Source: a virus (taxonomy: Duplodnaviria; Caudoviricetes). Taken from it: DNA of 64,000 nt. The stretch lies in the IMG/VR virus record IMGVR_UViG_3300044961_000667; one strand, given 5' to 3'. How positions within the stretch are numbered: position 1 is the first letter of the stretch; the number at the start of each line of letters is the position of its first letter. Made by a program: the position numbers and the translations under genes. Shown here piece by piece: positions 273 to 13,448 of this stretch. The notes under the pieces were generated by a model that saw only the letters and a list, made by a program, of their open reading frames with translations, was not told the DNA's origin and did not search any database.

Positions 273-936
273 GACCAGCCCTCCTTCGTTCCCACATGGC
301 CAAAGCGGCCAGTCGGTTCTTTTCGCGTGCCTCCGGCGAGTGTTTCTTGCCGGAAAAGTTCTTGTTGCCCATCAGACCAAGGCTGATGTTCAGGCTCCGC
401 TCGGCGCTGTGTTTCTTGCCAGTCCGCTGCGTGACCAACAACTGGATCGTCTCCGGCGAATGCTTCTTTCCGATCTGGGCCGACCGAAGCATCTCCTGAA
501 TGTGCTCTGGCCGAGACTTGCCACGATGGAGAGCGGCCAGCTTTCTCCTGGTCTCTGAAGAAAGCGTCCGCCCCTTCTGCGCCGCAGACATCTTCGCCTT
601 AGCTTCCGGCGTGTGCCTGTACCCAAGAAGCGAACCGGCCTTGGGCGCCAGATTGTACGGCGGACTCAGCACGTCGATGTGGTGCTGCTCTCGCTCAACG
701 AGCATGGCTGGATCTTCGACCCGCTCCACCACGGAGAAACGGAACGACGCCTCGCCGTACTTGTTCCAGGCCATCTGCAGTTTCTGATTGGGGTGCGTTC
801 CGCAACGGAGATGATGTCGATGACCGTACCAACGCTTGGCACCGTGGACTGCGCTCCCAACGTAGAACTTGCCGTTGACGACGTTGGAGATCCTGTACAC
901 GCAGGAAAAGCTGGCGATCTTCTCGACCTTCGACAT
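253..936 (-). CDS. GIY-YIG homing endonuclease with NUMOD3 repeats
   Basis: VYRISNVVNGKFYVGSA...RW..H motif, conserved E/N, C-terminal repeats (HTPEAKAKMSAAQKG, HSPET, HSPEAREK); start chosen at MSKVEK after AAGGAG. Confidence 0.88.
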   Translation of the reverse strand: MSKVEKIASFSCVYRISNVVNGKFYVGSAVHGAKRWYGHRHHLRCGTHPNQKLQMAWNKYGEASFRFSVVERVEDPAMLVEREQHHIDVLSPPYNLAPKAGSLLGYRHTPEAKAKMSAAQKGRTLSSETRRKLAALHRGKSRPEHIQEMLRSAQIGKKHSPETIQLLVTQRTGKKHSAERSLNISLGLMGNKNFSGKKHSPEAREKNRLAALAMWERRRAGHGEVES

Positions 937-990
937 GGGCTTCTCCTTTTCGTCCCATAGAGCCCGCATGGTCGCCGGCGTCAAGCGCTC

Positions 991-1285
991 CTATTTCTGG
1001 CCAGCCAACACCATGCGCAGCTTTCGCATAGCCTTGTCGGCGTCGTACAGCGCGGCCTCAAGCCTCTTGGCGGCCGGGTGCGGACCGAGCGCATCGATGA
1101 AGTGCTGGATGTCGATGAGAATCTCATCGAAGTGGGTCTTGTGGCTCCGCAGCTTCGCGAGGATGTCGCTGGCGGCCCCGCCGAGGGGCTCTTCGGCTTC
1201 CCCCCAGCGCCAGCTTCACGGACTCCAGGAGGGCGTTGGTGCGATCGAACGGACTACGACGAGACTCCACGCGCATCTGATTCAT
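991..1285 (-). pseudogene. Frameshifted member of the LLESVK-leader family
   Basis: MNQMRVESRRSPFDRTNALLESVKLALG then a G6 run (1200-1205); removing one G gives a 97-aa helical ORF (…LGEAEEPLGGAASDILAKL…LAGQK*). Confidence 0.55.
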
Positions 1286-1445
1286 GGCCAGCCCTCCCTC
1301 GTTTTCTCCACCGTCTTTTGAACTGCACGATGATGTAGCCGCGCTGCCTCGCCGGCAACACCGCTTTCACCTCGCGGCGCCTGCCATCGGTGTACACCAC
1401 GACGTCCCCCGGCTTCAGCTGCTTCAGCGTCTTGAGCGTGCTCAT
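1254..1445 (-). CDS. Small hypothetical protein (SH3-like beta pattern)
   Basis: LKPGDVVVYTDGRRREVKAV; start overlaps upstream stop. Confidence 0.5.
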   Translation of the reverse strand: MSTLKTLKQLKPGDVVVYTDGRRREVKAVLPARQRGYIIVQFKRRWRKRGRAGHESDARGVSS

Positions 1446-1789
1446 CGTTTTCCCCCGTCGTAGGCGACGGCGTGCCCGGCGCGGATCATCTCTTCGTTCA
1501 CCACCACGCCCGCCCCGTTGACGATGGTGGCCAACATCCGTCCGTACTTGTCGGACTCGTCCTTCTTCGTGCGGATCGTGACCGGCCCCTTCGACATCAG
1601 GTCCGCCATGTACTTGGTCGCCGCCTGCGCCCTCGCCCTTTCGGTGGCGTCCTTCGACGACATCTCCGGCGTGTTGATGCCGAGTAGTCGGAAGCGCTCC
1701 TCGACGTGGACGCTGAAGCCCAGGTCGACGCGAAGGTCGACGGTGTCCCCGTCGACGACCTTCAACAACGTCGCCCTGTACTCGTACAT
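1442..1789 (-). CDS. Thermonuclease (SNase-like) family protein
   Basis: KVVDGDTV, RLLGINTPE, DKYGRMLA, VNEEMIRAGHAVAY motifs. Confidence 0.9.
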   Translation of the reverse strand: MYEYRATLLKVVDGDTVDLRVDLGFSVHVEERFRLLGINTPEMSSKDATERARAQAATKYMADLMSKGPVTIRTKKDESDKYGRMLATIVNGAGVVVNEEMIRAGHAVAYDGGKR

Positions 1790-1802
1790 ATCGACCCCTG
1801 GT

Positions 1803-1814
1803 GCAATCGATTGC
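1803..1814. promoter_or_regulatory. GCAATCGATTGC palindrome copy 1
   Basis: Exact intergenic 12-mer, 13 nt upstream of thermonuclease start. Confidence 0.7.
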
Positions 1815-1819
1815 GCGAC

Positions 1820-2137
1820 TCAGTCCTCTTCGGACTCGTCGTCGTCAGCCTCGTCCGCCATGGATTCGATCCGCTGGCGAAGATCGTCGATGTTCCCAGT
1901 CTGGTGGCGGCCGGCAATCCACCCCTTCAGGTGCGGAATGATGTAGGCCGCCATCACGGGCTTCAATCCCGGAACGGAGCGGTACACCTCCTTGAGGGAC
2001 TCCAAAACATCCCTGATGCCCTCTTCGGCGTCATCGAGAGCGCTCAGCGCGGCATCGAAGTCAGAGCCAGGTCGAATCCCTTCGTGAAGCTCGCGCTTCA
2101 CGGACTCCAACAGCGTGTTGGTCTTCTTCAGGTTCAT
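1820..2137 (-). CDS. Hypothetical protein, LLESVK-leader family
   Basis: MNLKKTNTLLESVKRELHEG; GAGGAGG RBS. Confidence 0.75.
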   Translation of the reverse strand: MNLKKTNTLLESVKRELHEGIRPGSDFDAALSALDDAEEGIRDVLESLKEVYRSVPGLKPVMAAYIIPHLKGWIAGRHQTGNIDDLRQRIESMADEADDDESEED

Positions 2138-2152
2138 GGTTCCTCCTCTTGT

Positions 2153-2164
2153 GCAATCGATTGC
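2153..2164. promoter_or_regulatory. GCAATCGATTGC palindrome copy 2
   Basis: Exact 12-mer, 15 nt upstream of ATG 2137. Confidence 0.7.
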
Positions 2165-2171
2165 GCGTGCT

Positions 2172-2576
2172 TCAGCCGGCCTTGACAATGGCCCAGACGG
2201 CCCTGGCAACCTGGAGGCAGTCCGCCATCTCCTTCATCGCCATCTCGATGTCGCCCGCAGTCATGTTCTTCGGGTTGAATCCGTACCCGCCGATCTTCCC
2301 CGGCTCCAGGCCAACGCCAAGCTGCGCCATGCCGTGCGTGCCATGGATGTCGAACGTCTGGTCCATGCCCCATTGCTCGATGTTCTTCAGCACGCGATCG
2401 GCGCCGCCGTAACGATACTTTGCCCGCCCCGACGTCAGCGCGCGAGCGATCTTCTGGGCGAGAACGGGGTCGACCGAATCCGTAGCCTCCCCGATGTATC
2501 GCGAGGAGCGCCTGGCCGGATTCGCCAACTCCTTCTTCACCGACTCCAACAGGACATTCGTTCTCTTCAGATCCAT
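2172..2576 (-). CDS. Hypothetical protein, LLESVK-leader family
   Basis: MDLKRTNVLLESVKKELAN…IGEA. Confidence 0.75.
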   Translation of the reverse strand: MDLKRTNVLLESVKKELANPARRSSRYIGEATDSVDPVLAQKIARALTSGRAKYRYGGADRVLKNIEQWGMDQTFDIHGTHGMAQLGVGLEPGKIGGYGFNPKNMTAGDIEMAMKEMADCLQVARAVWAIVKAG

Positions 2577-2593
2577 GATTGAGTTCTCTTTCT

Positions 2594-3103
2594 TTACTTC
2601 GGGGCGGGCTTCGTCAGATCGCGATTGTTGTGCAGGTACGACGCGATTTGCTGGCTCATCGCGTACAACTGATTCGACAACCGCTTTGCGAACGCCTTGG
2701 CTTCGGGCACATCGCTGAACCGAGCCACCTGCGTGAGAGAGTGGGCCGCCTTGCCGTCGAACATCTCCACGCGGGCACGATCGAGAAAGTCATAGGTGTC
2801 CTTCGCGTCGTGGCCTGTCGCCTCGCCGAGGCTCTTGGACTTGCGCGGCCGGTTGCCGGGCGTGCTGGTCAGCTCGTCGTGAAGCTCTTCGAGCGCGCGA
2901 ATCGCGGCGTCGACCGGCGTCACGGAGATCATCGAGCCGAGCTTGCCCTTGTTGGCCCTCAGCTCCTTCACCATCTTCGCGACACGCCCCTCCCAGTTCG
3001 TGAGATCGGCGTCCAGGTCCTCCTTCACCGGGCGGCTACGCCCCGAGAGGCGGCTCTTCACGGACTCCAGGAGGGCGTTGGTCTTCTTCGGGTCCACGGG
3101 CAT
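2594..3103 (-). CDS. Hypothetical protein, LLESVK-leader family
   Basis: MPVDPKKTNALLESVKSRLSG…VKED…LGEA; GAGGAG RBS. Confidence 0.75.
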   Translation of the reverse strand: MPVDPKKTNALLESVKSRLSGRSRPVKEDLDADLTNWEGRVAKMVKELRANKGKLGSMISVTPVDAAIRALEELHDELTSTPGNRPRKSKSLGEATGHDAKDTYDFLDRARVEMFDGKAAHSLTQVARFSDVPEAKAFAKRLSNQLYAMSQQIASYLHNNRDLTKPAPK

Positions 3104-3109
3104 GTCTCC

Positions 3110-3169
3110 TCAGAAGCAGCAGCTATCACGATAGCCGCACTTGGGGCACTTGTCGTCTGTCGGCTTCAT
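3110..3169 (-). CDS. 19-aa mini-ORF duplicating the C-terminus of 3556-3753
   Basis: MKPTDDKCPKCGYRDSCCF*; ATG overlaps the endonuclease stop (ATGA). Confidence 0.5.
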   Translation of the reverse strand: MKPTDDKCPKCGYRDSCCF

Positions 3170-3552
3170 GCGACCCTCAATGCGTTGACGTTTGGACGAG
3201 GACGCTTGAGGTACGCCTCAGCCAATGGTTGGAGCCCTCGCTCCACGCCCCCAATGAACCAGTTGCAGAACGCACACAGCAGCCCTCTGACGTCACCGGT
3301 CTGATGATCGTGGTCGACATGCAGCAGCGCCCTGAAATTGCCAGGCAGTTTCTCTGGCGCCTTGCCGCAACAAGCACAGACTCCGCCCTGCTTTTCAAGC
3401 AGCGAGTCGTACACCTCGGCGGTGATGCCGTACCGCTTCTTCAGGGTGTGGGTCCGCTTGCGATCGTACGACGCCGCCATCCATCGCTCGTGACCGACTG
3501 GGTCACGAGCGATCCTGGCCTTGGTCCATCTGGCGTTCGTCGACTTAGTCAT
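3166..3552 (-). CDS. Endonuclease VII-family (His-Me) homing endonuclease
   Basis: RYGIT…QGGVCACCG…VDHDHQTGDVRGLLCAFCN. Confidence 0.9.
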   Translation of the reverse strand: MTKSTNARWTKARIARDPVGHERWMAASYDRKRTHTLKKRYGITAEVYDSLLEKQGGVCACCGKAPEKLPGNFRALLHVDHDHQTGDVRGLLCAFCNWFIGGVERGLQPLAEAYLKRPRPNVNALRVA

Positions 3553-3555
3553 GAC

Positions 3556-3753
3556 TCAGAAGCAACACGAGTCCCGATAGTGACACTTCGGGCAAATGTA
3601 GTGCGCGTGTTCGGGCTTCATCGTCGTCGAGCACTGGGGGCACGACGTCGACAAGTCGCAGCTCGCCGGCTTTTCTTCCGTCAGCACTCGCGCGTTCGAC
3701 GGCTGGCGCGAGCGCTGCGGAAGCTCCTCTGTGATCAGTCCCGGCTTTTGCAC
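3556..3753 (-). CDS. Small CPxC zinc-ribbon protein
   Basis: CPQCSTTMKPEHAHYICPKCHYRDSCCF; start uncertain. Confidence 0.6.
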   Translation of the reverse strand: MQKPGLITEELPQRSRQPSNARVLTEEKPASCDLSTSCPQCSTTMKPEHAHYICPKCHYRDSCCF

Positions 3754-4451: not shown

Positions 4452-4979
4452 TCAGCGCCCACGACGGGACTCGAACCCGCTTCGACGACGATGGGTTCTT
4501 TCAGCATGGCAGTTGGCACAAACAACCTCGCACTTCGCCAACTCCATTCTCACATCTTCCTCTGAACGGGCGTGGTTGACCATCCTCGACACGTCGTCTT
4601 GCTTCGTTCCCCTGACGTGATCAAACTGCATCACCCACGGCCCATACTGATGGCCACAGTCCGTACACGGCGTCGTGCTCTTGATCTCGTTGGCGATCTT
4701 GCGAAGCGTTTCACGCTTGATCGACTTGTACGCCCTGTTCTTGTCGACGTACTTCTGGTGATTGGAGCGGTAGTGCTTTCGCGAACCCTTCTGCATGCAC
4801 ACCCGACATCGCGAATGCCGCAGCGTCGGCTTCCTCTTCCAGTTGAAGTCGTCCTCTGACTTGAACCGTTCGCATCCGGAGCACCACTTCTGAACGCCCC
4901 CGGCGGGAATCGAACCCGCAACCCGTTCGCCTGTAGTCGGCGACAGCTCTGCCAGTTGAGCTACGGAAGCATCTTCCAC
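4452..4979 (-). CDS. HNH endonuclease whose reading frame runs through a tRNA-like sequence
   Basis: CSGC/CRVC, PCTDCG…FDHVRG…KCEVVCANCHAERT; the only plausible start (GTG 4979 after GGAG) precedes the tRNA at 4895-4970. Confidence 0.8.
   Translation of the reverse strand: MEDASVAQLAELSPTTGERVAGSIPAGGVQKWCSGCERFKSEDDFNWKRKPTLRHSRCRVCMQKGSRKHYRSNHQKYVDKNRAYKSIKRETLRKIANEIKSTTPCTDCGHQYGPWVMQFDHVRGTKQDDVSRMVNHARSEEDVRMELAKCEVVCANCHAERTHRRRSGFESRRGR
4456..4480 (-). pseudogene. 3' half (T arm + acceptor strand) of a split tRNA
   Basis: GCGGG TTCGAGT CCCGT CGTGGGC G; pairs 6/7 with acceptor strand at 5026-5032. Confidence 0.65.
4895..4970 (-). tRNA. tRNA-like gene with central CTA in a non-canonical anticodon loop
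   Basis: GCTTCCG/CGGGGGC acceptor, GCTC/GAGC D stem, TCGCC-GACTACA-GGCGA, GCGGG-TTCGATT-CCCGC; lacks U33 and purine 37. Confidence 0.6.
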
Positions 4980-4986
4980 ATCATCT

Positions 4987-5032
4987 CCGTCCACCTGTAG
5001 TCGGCGGTTGCTCGCCTATGAGCTACGAGGGC
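4987..5032 (-). pseudogene. 5' half of the split tRNA (same GACTACA loop)
   Basis: GCCCTCG TA GCTC ATAGGC GAGC AA CCGCC GACTACA GGTGG, no T arm follows. Confidence 0.65.
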
Positions 5033-5074
5033 CTGTTCCAACCTGAGGAGATCGTAACTCCTGCAGGAGTTTCG

Positions 5075-5305
5075 TCAAGTGACTGACTGCGCCGGCTCCT
5101 TGCAGTCGATGCAGTAGCCGCACGAGCCGCACCGGTACTTCACCCAAACGCCCTGCACCTTCGACACCCCCGCCGAGCGTCCGTCCTCCTGGCGCGTGAT
5201 GCCAGGCTTCTTGCACTGCGGGCAGATGCCTTGCTTCAGCTTCTCGTCGATCTGCTGACTCCATTCCTGGATGGCAGCGACAACGTCCTGAGGCGGCTCT
5301 TTCAC
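5075..5305 (-). CDS. Small zinc-finger protein
   Basis: CPQC…CGSCGYCIDC; AGGAG RBS. Confidence 0.6.
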   Translation of the reverse strand: MKEPPQDVVAAIQEWSQQIDEKLKQGICPQCKKPGITRQEDGRSAGVSKVQGVWVKYRCGSCGYCIDCKEPAQSVT

Positions 5306-5320
5306 TTCTCCTCCGTACCA

Positions 5321-5700
5321 TGGAGCTGCGGGGAATCGAACCCCGGTCCGAAAGCCTTCAGTCCTTCGACTCTACGTGCGTAGCCGCTGTCACCGCGGCC
5401 GAGTCCTGCTGCCCGCTGGTCTTTCCCCGCATTCGCCGAGCGGACTGGGCGGGGGCAACTCCTGGGTGGGTTTCGCCTCGCCAGCTACGCAGGAGCGCCT
5501 CGCTGGTTCGACGGAGAGCTAAGACTTTCGGTCCGCTCTCAAGCCCTGATCAGGGCAACCGCTCACGCGGCTGCGAGCATCGGGGCCGCCTCGACGTTGT
5601 CGTTGGCGGTTGTGGTTTCTCACTGGGATTTACGAGCACAGCGAGCTGCTCGGCACGCATCTCAGGTCGTCTTTGCCCCCGTCGAATCCAGTTCAGCCCC
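5321..5700 (-). ncRNA. ssrA: tmRNA, tag peptide ANDNVEAAPMLAAA
   Basis: 5' GGGGCTGAACTGGATTCGAC, 3' GGACCGGGGTTCGATTCCCCGCAGCTCCA; tag frame 5563-5607. Confidence 0.93.
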
Positions 5701-6080
5701 GTTCACTGCTTCCTTCAAGCAACGGCGATAGGCGCCCGTGCCGAACATCCGGTCGGTGCGCCCAACGCAGGGAGTTGTGGTCCCCCGCATCGCCGTCCTC
5801 ATCATCTCGCGCGTCGGTGTCGCCTGCACTTTTCGCACTGGCCCGTGCTGTCGAACACGCACAGCTCCTGATTCACACCGCATCCCACGTACTGCGCGAC
5901 CGAGTCGACGCGGAGCTGGGCTTCGTGGCCGCTCTCACGCGAGTCCGCTGCTCTCTGCGACTGCTCGTTCTGCGTCATGGGGGTGCGCCTTCTGTTCTTG
6001 GTCGAACTGACTGTCAAGATCATCAATGACACCAGTGGACAGTGTTCGTCAAGGGGAACCGGACAGCAGCGACAGTTTCT

Positions 6081-6146
6081 CGACCCGTCCAGGAGTCGAA
6101 CCCAGCACCACGCCCTTAGAAGGGGCCGGCGGATCCATCACGGGCC
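6081..6146 (-). tRNA. tRNA-Arg(TCT), truncated D arm
   Basis: GGCCCGT/ACGGGTC acceptor, CTTCTAA loop, T arm; only 66 nt. Confidence 0.55.
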
Positions 6147-6159
6147 TCAACAACAACAG

Positions 6160-6244
6160 CGGAGCGCCCGAGAGTCGAACTCGGCTGACCCGTGAAGGTC
6201 GTCGCGTTAGCAGTGCGATGCCGTCCCACGCTGGCTCACGCTCC
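6160..6244 (-). tRNA. tRNA-Ser(GCT)
   Basis: Cloverleaf, CTGCTAA loop, long variable arm. Confidence 0.85.
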
Positions 6245-6247
6245 ATG

Positions 6248-6335
6248 CGGAAAAGGCGAGAGTCGAACTCGCAGACCGCCCGAAGACGATCGTCCGCTTT
6301 CCAAGCGGGTGGGCTCACCAGTGCCCAGCTTCTCC
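6248..6335 (-). tRNA. tRNA-Ser(GGA)
   Basis: TTGGAAA loop, long variable arm. Confidence 0.85.
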
Positions 6336-6338
6336 ATG

Positions 6339-6427
6339 CGGAGCGGGTCCGAGTCGAACGGACAGCCCGCCTTTCGACGAGCAAGCGCTTTCGAGACGCT
6401 CTGACTTGCCTGTGTGCAAACCGCTCC
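6339..6427 (-). tRNA. tRNA-Ser(CGA)
   Basis: CTCGAAA loop, long variable arm. Confidence 0.85.
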
Positions 6428-6523
6428 AGAAACACCCTCAGATGACCGCCTGAGGGGCGCGGGGGCCTGTTGGCCGAGATGCCCCTAGCTGTCGCCAGTT
6501 CGTGAGCGTCTCGGGACGGCTTG

Positions 6524-6610
6524 CGGAAGACGGAGGACTCGAACCCCACACCCACTCGGGGTGCCGACCGCTTTCAAGGCGGGCCAGCGTCCATCACTGG
6601 TTCATCTTCC
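6524..6610 (-). tRNA. tRNA-Ser(TGA)
   Basis: CTTGAAA loop, long variable arm. Confidence 0.85.
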
Positions 6611-6611
6611 A

Positions 6612-6941
6612 TCACTGCGATCGCGGCTGATCGGCGTTCCAGACGGAGCGGCCCATCGCTCCCTCATCGGCCTCAGCGTTCTTCAACATCGAGTAGTAGT
6701 CCGGTCGCTCCTTCAGGTGCGCCCAGGCGATCTTCCCGATGTCGAGCAGGTCGTCAACCACGTCGGTCTCCGGGTCGACGTCATGCTCCGACTCAACCCC
6801 GAGACCGGCCGCGAACTCTCCGAGGTCGACCTGGCTCCAGTCGATCCCCAGCTGGTCGCCAACCCACTTCGCCAGCTCAGGGCTCCATGCCGGCGCCTCG
6901 CCGACCTCTTCCTTCAGCTGCCTGACGAGCTTCCTGAGCAT
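6612..6941 (-). CDS. DUF5661-like protein
   Basis: GLGVESEH…DD…KIAWAHLKERPDYYSML motif. Confidence 0.7.
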   Translation of the reverse strand: MLRKLVRQLKEEVGEAPAWSPELAKWVGDQLGIDWSQVDLGEFAAGLGVESEHDVDPETDVVDDLLDIGKIAWAHLKERPDYYSMLKNAEADEGAMGRSVWNADQPRSQ

Positions 6942-6981
6942 GCGGTGGCCTCCGGGCGCACAGTACACCCAGAGGCCACCC

Positions 6982-7524
6982 TCAGTCTTCCAGCTCGGTG
7001 TTCCAGTACGCCACCGAGGCGAGCCACTGCTTCCACGGCTCGGGCATGCCCTTCTTCCAGGTGAAGGTGAGCCGCACCGACTCGGGCAACGACTTCGGCT
7101 TCACCGGCACCTGCAGGAGCTTCATGCCTGCCTGCGCTGGCGTCCGACCGCCCTTCTTCTGGTTGCAGGGCGTGCACGACACCACGATGTTCTCCCACGT
7201 CGTGTGGCCGCCCTGCGTGCGCGGGACGACGTGGTCGTACGTGAAGTCGTGCCTGGGCACCTTCGCCGAGCAGTACTGGCACTTGCCCTTGTCTCGCGTG
7301 AAGACGTTCTCGCGACTGAACTTGATCGCCTTCTTCTTGCCGCGGATCGCCCGGAGGAACCGGATCACCGACGGCACCTTGAACTCCAACGTCATCGAGC
7401 GGACGGTCTTGTCCTCGTACTCCTCGACGACTTCCACCTTCTCCTCCCAGAGGAGGGTGATCGCCCGTTGCCAGCTCACGCGGGCAACCGGGGTGTAGCC
7501 AACATCGAGCACCAGCGTTTCCAC
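6982..7524 (-). CDS. HNH endonuclease (McrA-like bacterial family)
   Basis: LVLDVGYTP…SWQRAITLL…PSVIR…FSRENVFTRDKGKCQYC…TYDHVVPRTQGG…WENIVVSCTPCNQKKG. Confidence 0.9.
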   Translation of the reverse strand: METLVLDVGYTPVARVSWQRAITLLWEEKVEVVEEYEDKTVRSMTLEFKVPSVIRFLRAIRGKKKAIKFSRENVFTRDKGKCQYCSAKVPRHDFTYDHVVPRTQGGHTTWENIVVSCTPCNQKKGGRTPAQAGMKLLQVPVKPKSLPESVRLTFTWKKGMPEPWKQWLASVAYWNTELED

Positions 7525-7562
7525 GTTGCCCGTCCTTTCTGCGGCCTTCGCCGCGGTGAGTG

Positions 7563-7647
7563 TAGTCCCGGCCGGACTCGAACCGGCACGGCCTTTGTGG
7601 CCACTGGGGTTTGAGCCCAGCGCGTCTACCGACTCCGCCACGGGACC
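7563..7647 (-). tRNA. tRNA-Leu(CAA)
   Basis: CTGGG-CTCAAAC-CCCAG, long variable arm. Confidence 0.88.
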
Positions 7648-7652
7648 ATCTG

Positions 7653-7741
7653 TGCTCGGGGCGAGACTCGAACTCGCATGAGGCTTTCGCCCCACCGGCT
7701 TCTGAGGCCGGCGTGTCTACCGAAGGTTCCACCACCCGAGC
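7653..7741 (-). tRNA. tRNA-Leu(CAG)
   Basis: CCGGC-CTCAGAA-GCCGG. Confidence 0.88.
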
Positions 7742-7752
7742 ATGCACTTCAG

Positions 7753-7839
7753 TGGTCCGGGCGAGAGTCGAACTCGCATGATCTTTCGATCGGCAGGCTC
7801 TCAACCTGCTGTGTCTACCGGAGGTTCCACCACCGGACC
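7753..7839 (-). tRNA. tRNA-Leu(GAG)
   Basis: GCAGG-TTGAGAG-CCTGC. Confidence 0.88.
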
Positions 7840-7843
7840 AAAG

Positions 7844-7916
7844 TACCCGCTCTCGGAATCGAACCGAGCCCTCCGCCTTGTGAAAACGGCGCTCTCACCA
7901 GTTGAGCTACGCGGGC
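7844..7916 (-). tRNA. tRNA-Val(CAC)
   Basis: CCGTT-TTCACAA-GGCGG. Confidence 0.82.
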
Positions 7917-7920
7917 ATGT

Positions 7921-7990
7921 CGTGAGCCTGGGAGTCGAACCCAGCTGGGCGGATTATGAGACCGCTGCCTTCCCTCGATGGCTTGCTCAC
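7921..7990 (-). tRNA. tRNA(CAT), Met or Ile2
   Basis: GCGGT-CTCATAA-TCCGC. Confidence 0.75.
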
Positions 7991-7994
7991 GGAG

Positions 7995-8067
7995 TAGCAG
8001 GGGCTGGGATCGAACCAGCGTTCTCCAGGTTATGAGCCTGGCGAGATGACCTCTTCTCCACCCTGCA
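7995..8067 (-). tRNA. tRNA-Met(CAT), initiator-like (1:72 mismatch)
   Basis: TGCAGGG/CCCTGCT, CCAGG-CTCATAA-CCTGG. Confidence 0.8.
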
Positions 8068-8068
8068 G

Positions 8069-8142
8069 TACTCCCGGAGGGACTCGAACCCCCAGCCTCT
8101 TCGTTCGTAGCGAAGCGATCTGATCCGTTGATCTACGGGAGC
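8069..8142 (-). tRNA. tRNA-Arg(ACG)
   Basis: CTTCG-CTACGAA-CGAAG. Confidence 0.88.
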
Positions 8143-8154
8143 ATCAAACAACAG

Positions 8155-8228
8155 CGGTCTCGGCGGGACTCGAACCCGCGGCCTTTCGCTTCGGAGGCGA
8201 ACGCTCTCATCCACTGAGCTACGAGACC
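8155..8228 (-). tRNA. tRNA-Arg(CCG)
   Basis: TTCGC-CTCCGAA-GCGAA. Confidence 0.9.
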
Positions 8229-8230
8229 AG

Positions 8231-8303
8231 CGTTCCCGGAGGGACTCGAACCCCCGACTTCTCCGTTAGGACCGGAGCACTCTTCCAACTGAGCTACGGG
8301 AAC
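8231..8303 (-). tRNA. tRNA-Arg(CCT)
   Basis: CTCCG-GTCCTAA-CGGAG. Confidence 0.85.
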
Positions 8304-8309
8304 ATCCTG

Positions 8310-8380
<71 letters not shown>

Positions 8381-8779
8381 TCAACCAACCACGTACTTCT
8401 CAGCCAACTTCACACCGGACTTCTGACCGTTCTTGGCAGGCTCGACCCGAAGCTGCCCGCCAACGGCCCCAACCTCCTCGACCGGGACCAGATACACCGC
8501 ATCCAACTCTGGGCAGTGGACGCCGAAGAACTCGACCTCACCGCGGTACGACTTTCTCCCAGTCCCTCGGTGAGCCGAGTTGCTGCTGGTGTCGAAGACA
8601 ACCGCTCCATTCTTGAGCCGCCCAGTCTTGCACTGCACTCGCTGGAACCCGGCATCAGTGTCGATCACCAGGTCGTAGCGCTGGTTCTCTCCAATCGGGA
8701 GCAGCACCGTCCTCCCGGTCTTGAGCAACGCCGCCATCACCGCACCCTCTGTTCTCGTCCCCTGCGCCTTGGTGTTCAT
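8381..8779 (-). CDS. PD-(D/E)XK endonuclease (I-Ssp6803I / PDDEXK_5-like)
   Basis: G..TE…PIGENQRYDLVID…FQRVQCKTGR…YRGEVEFFGVHCPELDAVYLVP. Confidence 0.85.
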   Translation of the reverse strand: MNTKAQGTRTEGAVMAALLKTGRTVLLPIGENQRYDLVIDTDAGFQRVQCKTGRLKNGAVVFDTSSNSAHRGTGRKSYRGEVEFFGVHCPELDAVYLVPVEEVGAVGGQLRVEPAKNGQKSGVKLAEKYVVG

Positions 8780-8799
8780 GCTCCACATCTACCACACCG

Positions 8800-8841
8800 C
8801 TCGGACACCAGCCGAGTGCTCTGCCTTCGAGCTGCGGGGGC
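8800..8841 (-). pseudogene. 5' remnant of tRNA-Thr(GGT)
   Basis: GCCCCCG CA GCTC GAAGGCA GAGC A CTCGG CTGGTGT CCGAG, no T arm. Confidence 0.7.
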
Positions 8842-8845
8842 GCTG

Positions 8846-8918
8846 TGGATCTGGCCGGACTCGAACCGGCAACCTTCTGCGTGCAAAGCAGCCGCTCTCC
8901 CATTGGAGCTACAGACCC
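8846..8918 (-). tRNA. tRNA-Ala(TGC)
   Basis: TTTGCAC loop, G3-U70. Confidence 0.88.
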
Positions 8919-8923
8919 TTCAG

Positions 8924-8996
8924 TGGAACCGGCGGGACTTGAACCCGCCACCTCTCGCATGCGAAGCGAGCGCTCTCCCAGATGAGCTACGGCCCC
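8924..8996 (-). tRNA. tRNA-Ala(CGC)
   Basis: CTCGC-TTCGCAT-GCGAG. Confidence 0.88.
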
Positions 8997-9001
8997 AGGT
9001 G

Positions 9002-9072
9002 TGCGCGAGCAGGGAGTCGAACCCTGTCGTCTCCCGCGTCGGGGGAGTGCTCTACCGGTGAGCTACACGCGC
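9002..9072 (-). tRNA. tRNA-Val(GAC) with C33
   Basis: CTCCC-CCGACGC-GGGAG. Confidence 0.75.
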
Positions 9073-9161
9073 ATGGGCAGGCGGTGCTTTCGCCGAGCTG
9101 CCAGCAGTCACCACGTTCGTGACCCCGGCCCTGCTCGGTAGACTGCCACCTCTCCTGCTTG

Positions 9162-9234
9162 TGGACCCGGCGGGGATCGAACCCGCTACCTCTCGCATGC
9201 CATGCGAGCGCTCTCCCAAGTGAGCTACAGGCCC
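9162..9234 (-). tRNA. tRNA-Ala(GGC)
   Basis: CTCGC-ATGGCAT-GCGAG. Confidence 0.88.
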
Positions 9235-9326
9235 TAAGCGAGGCAGTTCGTAACGCTGCCTGCCCGGCTTTCCACCGGCGCGGGTTGATCAGACCCACGA
9301 GACTTGCCCGGAGCGACCGGGCCATG

Positions 9327-9399
9327 TGCCGTCCCTCGGAATCGAACCGAGATCCTCCGCTCTTCAGGCGGGTGCATGGACCACCACTGCCAAGACGGC
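9327..9399 (-). tRNA. tRNA-Phe(GAA)
   Basis: CCCGC-CTGAAGA-GCGGA. Confidence 0.82.
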
Positions 9400-9408
9400 G
9401 TACTTCAG

Positions 9409-9480
9409 CGGACCCGAACGGAATCGAACCGTCCTCGCCGGCGTGACAGGCCGGTCGCCTCACCAGATGCGTACGGATCC
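9409..9480 (-). tRNA. tRNA-Asp(GTC)
   Basis: CCGGC-CTGTCAC-GCCGG. Confidence 0.85.
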
Positions 9481-9485
9481 AACAG

Positions 9486-9568
9486 GGCGACTGGAGAGAA
9501 TCGAACTCTCACTGAGCTTTCGCTCGCGGGGTCACAACCCGCTGGGAACCCATTTCCCATCAGCCGCC
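9486..9568 (-). tRNA. tRNA-His(GTG) with long variable arm
   Basis: G-1:C73, GCGGG-TTGTGAC-CCCGC, GAGC-GAAA-GCTC variable hairpin. Confidence 0.8.
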
Positions 9569-9576
9569 AGAAGAAA

Positions 9577-9696
9577 TCTGCTCCACCCGAGTGAGGAAGG
9601 CATGAAACGGGTTTGAACCGTCTGGTCGATTTAGCAGATCGACTGATCACCAAGATCAGTAGTGCGTGTGAGCCATCCTCGGCCGGGTGGTGCAGA
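9577..9696 (-). ncRNA. tRNA-mimic-like structured RNA with extended closing stem
   Basis: D-like, anticodon-like and T-like hairpins closed by about 21 bp of interrupted terminal helix. Confidence 0.5.
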
Positions 9697-9697
9697 G

Positions 9698-9769
9698 TCC
9701 GCCGCAGTGGAATCGAACCACTTGCCTCTCGCTTATCAGGCGAGTGCTCTTCCAGTGAGCTACCGGCGG
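9698..9769 (-). tRNA. tRNA-Ile(GAT)
   Basis: CTCGC-CTGATAA-GCGAG. Confidence 0.82.
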
Positions 9770-9778
9770 GCACGTCAG

Positions 9779-9852
9779 TCAGGGTGGCTGGGATCGAACC
9801 AGCGACCTCCTGCATCCGAAGCAGGCGCGCTACCAGGCTGCGCTACACCCTG
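9779..9852 (-). tRNA. tRNA-Pro(CGG)
   Basis: CCTGC-TTCGGAT-GCAGG. Confidence 0.9.
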
Positions 9853-9862
9853 TTGAGTCAAG

Positions 9863-9899
9863 TCAGGTCGGCTGGGATCGAACCAGCGATCTCCTGCAT
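9863..9899 (-). pseudogene. 3' half of split tRNA-Pro
   Basis: AT GCAGG AGATC GCTGG TTCGATC CCAGC CGACCTG A. Confidence 0.8.
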
Positions 9900-10327
9900 C
9901 ACCAGACGTGGTCACTGGCCAGCAGGATGTTCTTCTTGGCCCCATTCGCGGGGGCCTCCAATCTCACATGCAGGATCGACTTCCCCTGGAACTCCTCAGG
10001 CAGGAAGGCCGTCACCACGTCCATCTCAGGCAGATACACCAGAAGCAGGTCAACCTCCCCGACCTCATACTTCTTGAACGACTTGTTGCTCGGTCCCACC
10101 CACGTCCTCAGAGCCACAGTCGCCACGCCGGACGAATGAGACGACTTGCCGCCTCCATACTTCGCTTGGGCCCGGATCAACCTAACACCATCATCCAGAA
10201 CCAGATCGTACCTGGCATCGGTTGTGGGCCGACTGACGACAAACCCCTTCTCAATCGCCCTCTGCTGCGCCTTCAGCGATGCCACTTCACCCTTCTGCCT
10301 GGTGTCCACTTCTCTTGCGTACCACAC
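9899..10327 (-). CDS. PD-(D/E)XK endonuclease (PDDEXK_5-like)
   Basis: KGEVA…VSRPTTDARYDLVLDDG…RAQAK…YEVGEVDLLLVY; paralogous to 8381-8779. Confidence 0.82.
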   Translation of the reverse strand: MWYAREVDTRQKGEVASLKAQQRAIEKGFVVSRPTTDARYDLVLDDGVRLIRAQAKYGGGKSSHSSGVATVALRTWVGPSNKSFKKYEVGEVDLLLVYLPEMDVVTAFLPEEFQGKSILHVRLEAPANGAKKNILLASDHVW

Positions 10328-10340
10328 AGGAGAACATCTG

Positions 10341-10412
10341 TCGAAGAGACTGGACTCGAACCAGCATCCTCACGGCCCCCAGCCGTGCGCTCCACCATTG
10401 AGCTACTCCTCG
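10341..10412 (-). tRNA. tRNA-Pro(GGG)
   Basis: CGAGGAG/CTCTTCG, CACGG-CTGGGGG-CCGTG. Confidence 0.82.
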
Positions 10413-10417
10413 TCACG

Positions 10418-10452
10418 CCCGAGCAGGCGCGGTACCACTCCGCTACGACCTG
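10418..10452 (-). pseudogene. 5' half of split tRNA-Pro
   Basis: CAGGTCG TA GCGG AGTGGTA CCGC G CCTGC TCGGG; pairs perfectly with 9863-9899. Confidence 0.8.
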
Positions 10453-10456
10453 AAAG

Positions 10457-10528
10457 TCTGGAAGGCGGGGATCGAACCCGCGACCTCTCGCGTCCAAGGC
10501 GAGCGCCCTACCGCTGGACTACTTCCAG
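10457..10528 (-). tRNA. tRNA-Pro(TGG)
   Basis: CTCGC-CTTGGAC-GCGAG. Confidence 0.85.
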
Positions 10529-10532
10529 TTGT

Positions 10533-10544
10533 GCAATCGATTGC
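10533..10544. promoter_or_regulatory. GCAATCGATTGC palindrome copy 3
   Basis: Exact 12-mer, 4 nt upstream of tRNA-Pro(TGG). Confidence 0.7.
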
Positions 10545-10552
10545 GTTCAAAA

Positions 10553-10712
10553 CTGTGCAGTGCGGACTGGCGGTTTGCACCCGCTGCACCGCATTGTCGG
10601 CCTGGCCTCAATAGGCCGCACGGTCCCACGCCGTCGAACGCCAGGACCTGCACCAACCACCGCCATGTTCGACCTGCCAAGCGGTGCCCGTTCATGCCGG
10701 GATGCTGCACAG
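10553..10712 (-). ncRNA. Candidate 160-nt structured RNA
   Basis: CTGTGCAG…CTGCACAG terminal helix followed by TTTT; several internal hairpins. Confidence 0.45.
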
Positions 10713-10784
10713 TACCCCGTACGAGAATCGAACTCGTTTCGCTCGCTTGAAGGGCGAGGGGCCTAACCAATGGCCGAACGGGGC
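10713..10784 (-). tRNA. tRNA-Glu(TTC) with C33
   Basis: CTCGC-CCTTCAA-GCGAG. Confidence 0.8.
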
Positions 10785-11119
10785 TTCTCTGCTCGATCAT
10801 GCGTCCTCTGCCGATGACAGTTGGCGCAGACCACTTCACATTTCTCGATCTCGGCTACGACCTTCTCAGGTCCGACACCGTGCCTCTTGAACTGCCCCAG
10901 GCTGAACTCCTTCCGACCCCTGACGTGATCAAAGTCCATCACCCATGGCGGATAGGCGACACCGCAGTCCGCGCACGGCCTGGACTTGGCTTTGTCGATG
11001 ATCGCCTTGATCGTCTCTTTGTAGGCCGCTGCCGCTCTGATGTACGAGATCTTGTTCTTCTCGTAGTGCCTGCGGCTGTACTCGGCCTGCTTCGACTTCG
11101 ACGGCTCTCTGAGCGGCAT
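10763..11119 (-). CDS. HNH endonuclease (paralog of 4452-4979)
   Basis: PCADCG…WVMDFDHVRG…KCEVVCANCHRQRT; stop lies inside tRNA-Glu. Confidence 0.85.
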   Translation of the reverse strand: MPLREPSKSKQAEYSRRHYEKNKISYIRAAAAYKETIKAIIDKAKSRPCADCGVAYPPWVMDFDHVRGRKEFSLGQFKRHGVGPEKVVAEIEKCEVVCANCHRQRTHDRAEKPRSAIG

Positions 11120-11129
11120 TCTTCGTCAT

Positions 11130-11198
11130 ACCACTTGACGAACCTTTCGTCACTCCACCTTGAAAGGGTGTCGGCCTCACCTGAAGCACCAACGGGGC
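11130..11198 (-). pseudogene. 5' remnant of tRNA-Glu(TTC)
   Basis: GCCCCGT…ACACC CTTTCAA GGTGG then a decayed T arm and no 3' acceptor strand. Confidence 0.7.
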
Positions 11199-11203
11199 TG
11201 AAG

Positions 11204-11274
11204 TACCGCGTACGGGTGTCGAACCCGTCTCACTGGGCTGAGAACCCAGGGACCTCCCGGAAGTCGAACGCGGC
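11204..11274 (-). tRNA. tRNA-Glu(CTC)
   Basis: CTGGG-TTCTCAG-CCCAG. Confidence 0.82.
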
Positions 11275-11280
11275 TTGAAG

Positions 11281-11353
11281 AGGCGGAGGCGGGAGTCGAA
11301 CCCGCTCGATGTCGGTTTTGCAGACCGATGCCTTCCCAGTTGGCTACTCCGCC
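11281..11353 (-). tRNA. tRNA-Cys(GCA)
   Basis: TCGGT-CTGCAAA-ACCGA, U73. Confidence 0.88.
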
Positions 11354-11375
11354 AGGGAAAGACGAGACTGTGCAC

Positions 11376-11732
11376 ATGAAGCGCGTGCTGTGCCTTGATG
11401 ACGACGACATGGTGGCCCGGCTCATCGCCGAGGTGGTCGAGTTCTGCGGACACGAGCCCGTTCGAGAGAGCGACCCGCTGAAGGCTTCCTCGGACCACCT
11501 CCACGACCGGAAGATCGCTGCGGTGCTCACCGACTACATGATGCCTCGCCTCGATGGCGTCGACGTTCTGGTGGTCTGGCAGGAGTCTCGACCCGAGGTG
11601 CGCCGAGTGCTGATCACCGCGGCCCCGAACGAGCCGGCGGTGAAAGAGGCCCTCCGCACCGGCGTCGCTCAGATGGTGATCGCTAAGCCTCCGACGATCG
11701 CCGACATCAAGATGGCCCTGGCCTGGCTCTGA
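11376..11732 (+). CDS. Single-domain response regulator (CheY-like receiver)
   Basis: RVLCLDDD…VLTDYMMPRLDG…VLITAA…IAKP: acidic pair, phospho-Asp, Thr, Lys all present. Confidence 0.9.
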   Translation: MKRVLCLDDDDMVARLIAEVVEFCGHEPVRESDPLKASSDHLHDRKIAAVLTDYMMPRLDGVDVLVVWQESRPEVRRVLITAAPNEPAVKEALRTGVAQMVIAKPPTIADIKMALAWL

Positions 11733-11733
11733 G

Positions 11734-12297
11734 CTACCGCTTCTTCCTCGCCAGTCGCTCCTCCAGCTGCTGAACCGACATCTGGATGGAGTCGTTGATC
11801 GACCGCATCATGTCCTGCCGGAGCTTGTACTCCAGCTCCTGCAGCTTCTTGTCGGAGGCGTCCTTCGACTCCTTCTCGCGCTGGCGGTAGTACTCACCCT
11901 GTTTCTCGATGCGCTGGTCCACCGCCTGCCGGATCTCCGAGACCGTTCCCTTCATGGCCTCGATGGCCGACAGCACCTGCTTCATCTCGGTCTGAACGTT
12001 GCCGACCGACTTGTCGATACCGGCCAGGGCGTCGCTCTGCTCGTCGAACTTGTCGTCGTGCTCGTCGAGCCGCTCTTCGGTCTTCTGCTTGTCCTTGTCC
12101 TCGCGGTCGACCGTCCGCGAGCCCAGCCACTTGACGAAGCCAACGACGGCTCCGATCAACTGGGTGACGACTGCTGCTCCGACCAGCAAGTACAGCCCGG
12201 TCAGCCCGTCACCTGCTGGCGCTGGCGGTGGGGTTGCTGCTGCGGCTCCTGCCGCCGCCGCCGCCGCCGGGCCCGCCGCCAAGATCAACAGGTTCAA
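11734..12297 (-). CDS. Membrane protein with coiled-coil tail (holin-like?)
   Basis: One hydrophobic helix LYLLVGAAVVTQLIGAVVGFVKWL followed by a long charged coiled coil. Confidence 0.6.
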   Translation of the reverse strand: MNLLILAAGPAAAAAAGAAAATPPPAPAGDGLTGLYLLVGAAVVTQLIGAVVGFVKWLGSRTVDREDKDKQKTEERLDEHDDKFDEQSDALAGIDKSVGNVQTEMKQVLSAIEAMKGTVSEIRQAVDQRIEKQGEYYRQREKESKDASDKKLQELEYKLRQDMMRSINDSIQMSVQQLEERLARKKR

Positions 12298-12300
12298 GAA

Positions 12301-12657
12301 CTACTCCTTGCTCGACAGATCGTCGTCGTCGTCGGGCTCTTCAGAGGGCACCGCCGACACCGGAGTCGCTGGCGGGAGGTTCACCTGCAGCTTGGCCGCA
12401 ATGGCGTCCACCACCTTCGACGTGTGCCGGCTTTCCATCTGCATCGACATCATCAGCTTCTCGCCTCGGAGCGTGCGCTCGTCGACATGCTTCACGGCGG
12501 TCTTCAGTGCCGCCAGGTCCTCGCCGAAGCCGGCCATTTTGGACCTCATCTCGTGCATGTCCTCTTCGAGCTTTGCCACTCGCGAGGCCAGGCTGATGGC
12601 CGTCGGCTTCCGCTTTCTTGGGGCCGTACGGAGGCCCCTCCCTCTGGTGTCACGCAA
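12301..12657 (-). CDS. Coiled-coil hypothetical protein
   Basis: Heptad pattern, basic N-terminus, acidic C-terminus. Confidence 0.6.
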   Translation of the reverse strand: MRDTRGRGLRTAPRKRKPTAISLASRVAKLEEDMHEMRSKMAGFGEDLAALKTAVKHVDERTLRGEKLMMSMQMESRHTSKVVDAIAAKLQVNLPPATPVSAVPSEEPDDDDDLSSKE

Positions 12658-12766
12658 AGTCGCTCTCCGAAGAAGCGGTCCACGGTCGTGGTTCTCTCAC
12701 GGCCTGCTGTTGGTTGACTGCTCCATCTTTCGCCCTCTTCTGGGCATCCGTCAACTGTCACTGATG

Positions 12767-12841
12767 CGTACCCTCTCGGAATCGAACCGAGCACCGTCGG
12801 CTTAACAGGCCGCTGCTATCAACCAGACCAGCTCAGGGCAC
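12767..12841 (-). tRNA. tRNA-Asn(GTT)
   Basis: CTGTTAA loop. Confidence 0.75.
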
Positions 12842-12847
12842 ATCGTA

Positions 12848-12918
12848 CTGGGGAGGAAGGGATCGAACCTTCTCCGTCGGCTTCAGAGACCGCTGCGCTA
12901 CCCTTGCGCCACTCCCCA
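12848..12918 (-). tRNA. tRNA-Gln(CTG)
   Basis: CTCTGAA loop, TGGGGAG acceptor. Confidence 0.85.
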
Positions 12919-12930
12919 ATGTCTTTCGCT

Positions 12931-12997
12931 CAGGGGCCCTGGGAATCGAACCCAGCTCGTCGGCTTCAAAGGCCGACTCACTCCCTGAGTACCCCTC
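12931..12997 (-). tRNA. tRNA-Gln(TTG), irregular
   Basis: TCGGC-CTTTGAA-GCCGA; short D region. Confidence 0.6.
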
Positions 12998-13001
12998 CAT
13001 G

Positions 13002-13073
13002 AGCGGGTGGCGAGGATCGAACTCGCGCATCCTGGGTTGGAAGCCCAGAGCCTTTCCGCTTGGCTACACCCGC
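13002..13073 (-). tRNA. tRNA-Gly(TCC)
   Basis: CTGGG-CTTCCAA-CCCAG. Confidence 0.88.
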
Positions 13074-13076
13074 ATG

Positions 13077-13147
13077 TACCGCCGCTGGGGATCGAACCCA
13101 GTCCCTCCGCTTAAAAGGCGGTTGCTCTACCCTTGAGCTACGACGGC
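13077..13147 (-). tRNA. tRNA-Lys(TTT)
   Basis: CTTTTAA loop. Confidence 0.85.
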
Positions 13148-13204
13148 GCGTGGACCTGCGCCGTCGCGTTTCATCTTCGTCTTCATCGTCGTCTCCTTGT
13201 CGAG

Positions 13205-13292
13205 TGGTGGGAAGGCTCGGAGTCGAGCCGAGCTGGGACGCAATGCCACCCGCTTTACAGGCGGGCCACGAGCCCTACGTGTCTACCTTCCC
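13205..13292 (-). tRNA. tRNA-Tyr(GTA), encoded CCA
   Basis: CCCGC-CTGTAAA-GCGGG, long variable arm. Confidence 0.82.
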
Positions 13293-13295
13293 ATG

Positions 13296-13366: not shown

Positions 13367-13448
13367 ATACGGCTTTGTCGCTGACGGCCGCGCAGATCCT
13401 CGTGCGGAATGCACGAAGGACTGAACGTCTGCCGGCGACAGAAGCCAG

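Follow-up and report, generated by a model that had tools for sequence, protein, structure and literature searches.

A leader shared by unrelated small phage proteins as a candidate capsid-targeting propeptide

Why would a phage place one and the same short peptide in front of neighbouring small proteins that otherwise have nothing in common? The question is raised by a 64,000-nucleotide stretch of DNA from an uncultured tailed phage (Duplodnaviria; Caudoviricetes; IMG/VR record IMGVR_UViG_3300044961_000667), here called the window, in which a conserved leader with the core TNxLLESVK recurs in four genes, A to D, on the minus strand between positions 991 and 3103. A sequence-only reading of this DNA had taken the leader for a portable tag that loads diverse cargo into the phage head for injection, in the manner of the internal proteins of phage T4. 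After comparing near-identical strains, scanning with leader profiles and inspecting the head genes of the same species, we think that the shared leader is, on balance, probably a lineage-specific capsid-targeting propeptide.

One leader on unrelated bodies

In a six-frame translation of the window, the pattern [KR]TN.LLESVK has exactly four matches, all on a single strand and close to the starts of open reading frames (ORFs): RTNALLESVK, KTNTLLESVK, RTNVLLESVK and KTNALLESVK, the same four that the sequence-only reading had listed. The intact minus-strand genes D, C and B open with M-x-L-K-[KR]-T-N-x-L-L-E-S-V-K. Gene D (2594-3103) encodes 169 residues with the leader MPVDPKKTNALLESVK (KTNALLESVK at 3056-3085); gene C (2172-2576) encodes 134 residues with the leader MDLKRTNVLLESVK at 2535-2576 (RTNVLLESVK at 2535-2564); and gene B (1820-2137), whose start reads MNLKKTNTLLESVK, encodes an acidic protein of 105 residues (pI 4.6) with the leader module MNLKKTNTLLESVKRELHEGIRP at 2069-2137 (KTNTLLESVK at 2096-2125). 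The bodies behind the leaders had been called unrelated, and they are: those of A, B, C and D show no significant pairwise similarity and match no Pfam or PHROG family, and a word-based protein search with gene B returned B itself as its sole match. Gene D has homologs (P0006, P0007 and P0008), with close ones on Logan and JGI contigs, and its ESM Atlas model resembles only generic helical bundles, in alignments that mostly start at about residue 26.

The fourth gene complicates the picture of four adjacent ORFs. All four leaders are there, but gene A is not intact, and a leaderless gene of the staphylococcal nuclease family (SNase; 1442-1789, minus strand; Pfam SNase 4.4e-13, phrog_452) and a 63-codon ORF (1254-1445, minus strand) lie between it and gene B. 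The upstream frame of gene A (1124-1285, minus strand) begins MNQMRVESRRSPFDRTNALLESVKLALGG, contains the leader RTNALLESVK at 1214-1243 (leader sequence from 1285: MNQMRVESRRSPFDRTNALLESVK) and stops after 53 codons; the downstream frame (991-1203, minus strand; P0005, 70 residues) holds the cargo body. The frame breaks at a run of six G (1200-1205, minus strand), and because the leader and the body lie in different frames behind this run, the 'LGE' site ascribed earlier to gene A is obtained only by skipping one base. Judged by homology, the downstream body is real coding sequence, since it is related to the body of B', a leader gene in the related strain L007 (BLASTP, 34% identity over 64 residues, E 8e-11). 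A second change, an extra A at about 1316 relative to near-identical strains, cuts off a 43-residue N-terminal piece that is fused in those strains, where the 63-codon ORF continues in frame into the A-type leader gene to give A', a protein of 237 residues. Both indels are present, without gaps, in contigs from a second run on the window's own sample (X3), and are therefore probably real; the extra A is missing from X5 and X7. Gene A is thus probably a genuine pseudogene in the sampled population. We considered sequencing error as the source of the broken gene and hold it to be unlikely, as the second run agrees, with the limit that both runs share one sample.

The strict leader recurs in near-identical strains, on the genes B' (L007), A' (L006), short D, C', E and F (L130), and G and H (L136). 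Gene G (L136 11664-12068), with the leader MNLKRINSLLESVKSELKEATGP, lies near genes for RNase H, ligase and clamp; gene H (L136 10001-10582) combines a degenerate N-terminal copy with GTNELLETVKRSLVET at about residue 29. On L130, a 1.2-kb contig that carries P0012, one ORF holds two in-frame leaders, MSLKAANVALESIKRHLGEA... and ...MDLKKTNAMLESIKGRLTEG..., and the short version of D joins its leader via HLVE-GS directly to the domain that starts GHDAKD, before which D itself has SLGE-AT.

Aligned, these leaders give the consensus M-[ND]-L-K-[KR]-T-N-x-L-L-E-S-V-K-x-x-L-x-E-[AG], about 20-23 residues in total and often followed by a proline a few residues later. Two parts can be told apart: an amphipathic helix, hhE(S/A)hK, where h is a hydrophobic residue, followed three residues later by an L-x-E-(A/G) site. 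With LLESVK as the anchor of the alignment, this site stands three residues past the lysine in seven of the ten strict leaders, which continue with RELHEG (B), RELQEA (B'), LALGEA (A, frame corrected), KHLVEG (short D), RHLGEA (E), GRLTEG (F) and SELKEA (G). In the rest, an h-x-E comes within about 15 residues: KVE-A in C', ISE-S in A', YIGE-A in C (residues 27-30, the next such site after its leader) and PVKE-D in D. Gene D has two candidate cut sites, VKE at residues 26-28 and SLGE|AT just ahead of its conserved C-terminal domain, and LLE lies within every strict leader. The later proline is found in six leaders (B, B', A, C', G and the relaxed leader at L006 13103), and similarity between alleles stops there. 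Read as a sequence pattern, the tag therefore appears to end in an L/I-x-E motif.

How far does the leader extend beyond this family? In 7 of the 78 window proteins (0.04 expected from shuffles), the hexapeptide [LIVM][LIVM]E[SAQ][LIVM][KR] falls among the first 25 residues; protein interiors contain it once (0.18 expected). Because this expression was picked after the sequences had been seen, we built a position-specific scoring matrix (PSSM) seeded on the strict family only and scanned 122 other proteins from the window, L003, L006, L007 and L129. With nine columns, the four best non-family hits are all N-termini, at positions 4, 4, 4 and 9 (p = 4.5e-4 for four N-termini in the top five): MKTLIESVKAELGA (61424-61816), MKKLVEALKKELGEA and MRQLVEALKKELREA (both L006), and MSLSRLRPLVESMKKVLGEGG (57919-58344). 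With 13 columns, including the "K-TN" part, the strict family alone is picked and the next hit falls inside the shuffle range. The leaders accordingly form two classes, a strict family and a statistically supported relaxed one, and chance is rejected as the source of the shared leader by the shuffle counts and the PSSM. The relaxed leader, hhE(S/A)hK-xx-L-x-E-(A/G), stands at the N-termini of a 130-residue protein of the neck region (61424-61816, minus strand; GTG start overlapping the upstream stop codon; top non-family hit with 19.7 bits), a 141-residue protein encoded upstream of the sheath gene (57919-58344, minus strand; 14.5 bits) and three L006 proteins (12433, 13103 and 13356, the last from a merged-contig scan). 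The continuations KELGEA, KELREA and KVLGEG have the same layout as in the strict leaders. The three L006 genes are neighbours and form a second small family, M[RK][QK][LI]VEALKKE[LV][RG]E. Of the related leaders that had been reported across the window, TLIESVK (61424-61816) and PLVESMK (57919-58344) hold up in the PSSM scan, but SLVEQMR (15066), KLVRQLKE (6941) and ELIRELE (53000) are outside its top 25 hits and are not above chance.

Along 86 kb walked on a 123.7-kb contig of a related strain (178 called genes, non-structural), the strict leader is found only on D, B, A', G and H and the relaxed leader on only three further genes, leaving about 170 genes with neither. A profile of seven strict leaders, run against 1.84 billion representative proteins, matched only B, D, B', C, P0012 and one low-complexity ORF; within that library the leader is, as far as profile matching goes, confined to this phage lineage. 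Back-translated leader DNA patterns had no match in IMG/VR, and a more degenerate pattern gave at least 120 matches in metagenome contigs, those listed being in unrelated contexts or wrong frames.

At the DNA level, the nine leader codons come in nine distinct versions. Over the eight conserved codons, 68 synonymous stand against 41 nonsynonymous pairwise differences, and the latter (V/I, L/M/A and T/A) are mostly conservative; this excess of synonymous changes indicates that selection acts on the leader peptide. The 27 leader nucleotides of genes A and D are identical.

Exchange of cargo bodies between strains

What happens behind the leader can be followed directly in strains whose flanking DNA is 98-99.9% identical to the window (L006/L129, the 123.7-kb contig, and L007). 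In the A slot, both L006 and L007 hold an unrelated body of 160 residues: their DNA is identical to the window through ...CTCCTGGAGTCC, which encodes LLES, and unrelated immediately thereafter. In the B slot, L007 holds B', which shares its first 23 residues with B and then continues into an unrelated body, a homolog of the body of A in the window, so that one cargo family is found in two different slots. The C cassette is a precise presence/absence difference between strains, window positions 2139-2594 being replaced in X5 and X7 by 11 nt. The contig joints at 1220 and 2090 are both situated immediately 3' of the leader codons. Cargo bodies are thus exchanged between strains of about 99% identity, with junctions just 3' of the leader. 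We rejected diverged tandem paralogs as the origin of the unrelated bodies, because the DNA flips abruptly between strains from identical to unrelated after LLES.

Relatives counted, nine unrelated bodies stand behind the strict leader and five more behind the relaxed one. The bodies of the leader genes in related strains show no mutual similarity and match no Pfam or PHROG family; the exceptions to dissimilarity are A and B' (by BLASTP), C and its homolog C', which bears the same leader (P0012 against P0002, visual alignment), and D and the short D of L130 (by eye). The idea of a portable leader on diverse cargo is thereby well supported by the number of bodies, the position of the junctions, the cargo shared by two slots and the synonymous excess. 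The repeated leader DNA is evidently a recombination substrate.

Gene D adds a mosaic of its own. Between the window and L006, synonymous divergence (dS) is about 0.014 in the flanking genes and 0.05 in the N-terminal half of D but reaches 0.61 in its C-terminal half (2594-2860 in the window, 7250-7521 in L006), with a dN/dS (nonsynonymous over synonymous divergence) of about 0.2. As the C-terminal value is far above those of the N-terminal half and the flanks, the comparison points to recombination with a breakpoint close to the SLGE|ATGHD boundary and to a mosaic C-terminal half. In P0008 from L008, a distant homolog of D, the N-terminus is different, which fits, weakly, with address tags matched to each phage's own core and hence with the capsid-targeting reading. 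On L008, the D homolog (208-678) and an unrelated protein of 313 residues (2277-3218) have NVV[SR]RF in common at residues 7-13; this may be an N-terminal tag of the L008 lineage's own.

A candidate propeptide and its rivals

Does this phage have the machinery that a capsid-targeting propeptide would require? The window ends just short of it. An IMG/VR contig, L003, is 99.4% identical to the last 1.6 kb of the window (62422-64000) and runs upstream into the head module, with the C-terminus of the terminase, a portal protein (Portal_T4, 2.1e-77), two unassigned proteins (310 residues, and an acidic one of 445 residues), a protease (Peptidase_S77, 6.8e-15) and a capsid protein (Gp23, 2.2e-69), so that the protease gene sits just outside the window. 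The protease (L003 6020-7585) belongs to a protein of 521 residues, in which an N-terminal Peptidase_S77 domain (phrog_207, 4e-45) is joined to a long coiled coil. The capsid protein aligns to the structures of T4 gp23 and mature gp23*; ILLE-N and SLTE-D precede its aligned mature core. By these family matches, the same phage species encodes a gp21-type protease together with a T4-type head of gp20 portal and gp23 capsid protein.

In T4, a capsid-targeting sequence (CTS) on IPI, IPII, IPIII and Alt is removed by gp21 (Mullaney & Black 1996, via PMC9026906 and PMC3012670); the first ten residues of IPIII are enough for head loading, and gp21 cuts after L/I-X-E, first observed as a Glu-Ala bond in gp22 (PMC9026906). 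By analogy, the leader helix would dock each protein on the scaffold or core of a T4-type prohead during shell assembly. The gp21-type Peptidase_S77 would then cut after the glutamate of L-x-E, possibly after LLE too, freeing unrelated small cargo proteins inside the head, from where they would be delivered along with the DNA. Since the leader DNA is repeated, it would also serve as a homology handle, behind which cargo could be swapped between slots and strains.

The T4 analogy drawn in the sequence-only reading thus gains a gp21-type protease, a T4-type portal and Gp23 in the same species and an L-x-E-(A/G) site that fits the gp21 motif, but it has to accommodate leaders that are internal in several alleles and genes that lie outside the head module. 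These and other observations weigh against a capsid-targeting propeptide. The steps of docking, cleavage, packaging and injection are ones that we infer. The T4 CTS sits at the extreme N-terminus; here the leader is placed at residue 68 of the 237-residue A', residue 93 of an L130 ORF and about residue 29 of H, and the short D of L130 has 20 or more residues ahead of it. Tripeptides of the form h-x-E are common and prove little alone, a promoter scan of 800-3700 found none, and an AlphaFold2 prediction of gene C made without an alignment (pLDDT 40) gave a model of no use. The strict-leader genes sit among nucleases, homing endonucleases and replication genes, and a PSSM scan of the L003 head-module proteins (the 310- and 445-residue proteins, the capsid protein and the N-terminus of the protease) found no strict leader.

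Some of these facts also suit a different explanation, unconnected with the capsid: the conserved helix would be a retained, functional part of the mature proteins that docks or oligomerises them onto one partner, for example a complex of the host or the phage. Leaders that are internal or tandem in some alleles, genes of early and replication type, the lack of a strict leader on head-module proteins and a cleavage predicted from sequence all sit comfortably with such a helix. It would leave unexplained why conservation ends at L-x-E-(A/G), in keeping with the specificity of the phage's own protease family (PMC9026906), and why the relaxed leader stands at the N-termini of two neck and tail morphogenesis genes; we regard it as possible but doubtful. 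A leader that targets a place other than the capsid interior, for instance tail or neck assembly or another compartment, or that acts as a degradation or regulatory tag, could appeal to those same relaxed leaders on neck-to-sheath genes (61424-61816 and 57919-58344), and the present data fit head and tail loading alike. But a Sec- or Tat-type signal peptide is not what the leaders resemble when read by eye: KKTNxLLESVKxEL is amphipathic and charged and lacks the hydrophobic stretch that a secretion or membrane signal needs. Moreover, short conserved N-terminal tags with h-x-E sites have a single known precedent on diverse phage proteins, namely head loading in phages that possess this protease family (PMC9026906, PMC5694885), and we consider another destination very improbable.

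Could the repeat instead be selected mainly as DNA, a recombination handle for cassette shuffling that is perhaps tied to the flanking homing endonucleases, with the peptide incidental? The exchange junctions just 3' of the leader codons, the Endonuclease VII and GIY-YIG genes on either side of the cluster and the leader nucleotides identical in A and D all speak for such a handle. However, the peptide stays constant across nine DNA versions with a synonymous excess, the motif is frame-specific and start-proximal, L-x-E-(A/G) is kept as amino acids with different codons, and the propeptide model also predicts recombination at the leader, as a by-product. A handle at the DNA level alone is therefore improbable in our view.

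Within the capsid-targeting reading, a bolder version can be formulated, which we think rather unlikely as it stands. The leader would be a position-independent capsid tag that works N-terminally, behind a pre-domain, or in tandem in multi-cargo ORFs that the head protease cuts like a polyprotein; it would dock by mimicking the heptads of the scaffold coiled coil, and its repeated DNA would drive exchange of the injected arsenal between loci, from the tRNA and nuclease region to the replication module. Of the 15 best non-family PSSM hits, four fall in the coiled-coil part of the protease/scaffold protein, which fits, weakly, with the capsid-targeting reading in general and may hint at such mimicry of scaffold heptads, or may equally be a compositional effect.

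If the leader is a capsid-targeting propeptide, it marks a set of proteins that an uncultured phage injects ahead of gene expression, and since all of them are orphans, these would be candidates for anti-defence or host-takeover functions. The T4 internal-protein strategy would then reach a very distant high-GC lineage, with a different, longer tag, and the strains would offer a natural, strain-resolved picture of how cargo cassettes are exchanged while the address label in front of them stays constant. Tags of this kind are of practical use as well: foreign proteins have been loaded into phage heads with the T4 CTS (PMC9026906).

The surrounding locus and comparison with known systems

The window has a G+C content of 62-66% and carries almost all of its genes on the minus strand. 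According to the run metadata, its DNA comes from a hot-spring or microbial-mat metagenome, with close relatives in wastewater and bioreactor samples; the locus is also represented in wastewater metatranscriptomes (runs X14 and X19). A contractile-tail virion module fills 16,000-64,000 (SU10-type adaptor, sheath, tube, tape measure, baseplate and fibres), and the leader cluster lies just downstream of an array of 38 tRNA genes and a tmRNA gene (4,900-13,800). This array (4894-13751; tmRNA at 5321-5700) is split by free-standing endonuclease genes of HNH, PD-(D/E)XK and other types, and includes a tRNA with a CUA anticodon at 4894-4971 that ARAGORN calls Pyl. Read along the minus strand, the cluster runs from a free-standing endonuclease of the Endonuclease VII type (3166-3552; Pfam/PHROG), upstream of D and not at this position in L006, through D, C, B, the SNase gene and the 63-codon ORF with A to a GIY-YIG/NUMOD3 homing endonuclease downstream of A (253-984; Pfam/PHROG). 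A nucleotide search of 900-3200 against GenBank phages found no match, and Rfam, promoter and terminator scans of the leader cluster returned nothing on the coding strand.

Within and beyond the cluster we noted a perfect palindrome, GCAATCGATTGC, which is often extended to CGCGCAATCGATTGC[AG]C. It lies directly upstream of gene B (2153-2164) and between gene B and the SNase gene (1803-1814), and the window holds eight copies (0.13 expected), at 1803, 2153, 10533, 15441, 36721, 45021, 51152 and 61409, with a further occurrence in L136 at about 12071-12091. The seven copies for which the context was printed all lie between a stop codon and the next start, 3-22 nt before the start codon. The palindrome precedes B, the SNase gene and several virion genes, and in the relative L136 it follows the leader gene G. 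A classical promoter would not fit into 3-22 nt before the start codon; the palindrome may instead act as an operator or a processing site, or form a small hairpin.

Three proteins whose starts resemble the leader by eye deserve mention in their own right. The gene at 14131-15066 (minus strand) encodes a basic protein of 311 residues that starts MSSLSSLVEQMRSLVEKG, is rich in Lys, Ala and Pro, and has an acidic tail and a histone-H1-like centre rich in Lys, Ala, Pro and Gly (57 K+R); its leader resemblance (SLVEQMRSLVEKG) is weak, outside the top 25 PSSM hits and without statistical support. It lies directly downstream of the gene for a very acidic protein of 117 residues (15075-15428), with a copy of the palindrome upstream of the pair, and from its composition it could be a DNA-condensing internal protein. 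A DUF5661 protein (6612-6941; Pfam 3.9e-15) starts MLRKLVRQLKEEVGEAP, leader-like by eye with VGE-A, and is no significant PSSM hit. Between the tail tube and tail chaperone genes, a protein of 596 residues (51210-53000) starts MKIDELIRELEAV and contains a 2H phosphoesterase or LigT-like domain at residues 391-509 (Pfam 5e-14); an enzyme that processes RNA or cyclic nucleotides is unusual within a tail gene block. In the replication region of a related strain, L134 encodes a protein of 379 residues (13006-14145) with a precomputed AcrVA2-like Pfam hit (PF26125), adjoining an RNase_T exonuclease gene; going by this hit, it is possibly an anti-CRISPR-type gene.

Finally, we would like to compare the leader with two known systems. 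Its principle is that of T4, where the internal proteins of T-even phages are diverse and the CTS alone is conserved (PMC3012670). In both cases, a short conserved tag stands at the N-terminus of otherwise unrelated small proteins and is followed by a hydrophobic-x-Glu site, in a phage species whose head genes include a T4-type portal, a Gp23 capsid protein and a gp21-family protease. Neither system keeps its cargo genes with the head genes: they are found in a plastic region that contains homing endonucleases and adjoins a tRNA array, and their set differs between close relatives. Compared with the T4 CTS, the leader described here has about twice the length and seems to consist of two parts (helix plus L-x-E-(A/G)), and it sometimes follows at least 14 residues or is internal or tandem in longer ORFs. 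The leader proteins match no T4-related family in Pfam or PHROG, a result that concerns the proteins, as the leader was not aligned with the T4 CTS peptide itself. In contrast to the T-even phages, this phage is high-GC and tRNA-rich and comes from hot-spring mat and wastewater samples.

The second comparison is with the phiKZ-like giant phages, whose gp21-related proteases (phiKZ gp175, SPN3US gp245) also cut after the glutamate of a three-residue motif. There, propeptides can be long and have several sites, longer than the 10-20 residues of T4, and paralogous head proteins have diverged in their bodies but remain identical at their N-termini, as in SPN3US gp53 and gp54 with 15 identical N-terminal residues (PMC5694885). 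However, their motif is S/A-x-E or A-x-E and their propeptides often exceed 100 residues, whereas the present leader has about 20 residues and shares the L-x-E motif with T4; inner-body or virion RNA polymerase genes were not seen here. Against this background, what sets the present case apart is the sequence of the leader, its bipartite form of about 20 residues, the phage lineage and the internal and tandem copies, together with a direct view of cargo cassettes being exchanged 3' of the leader in strains that are about 99% identical.

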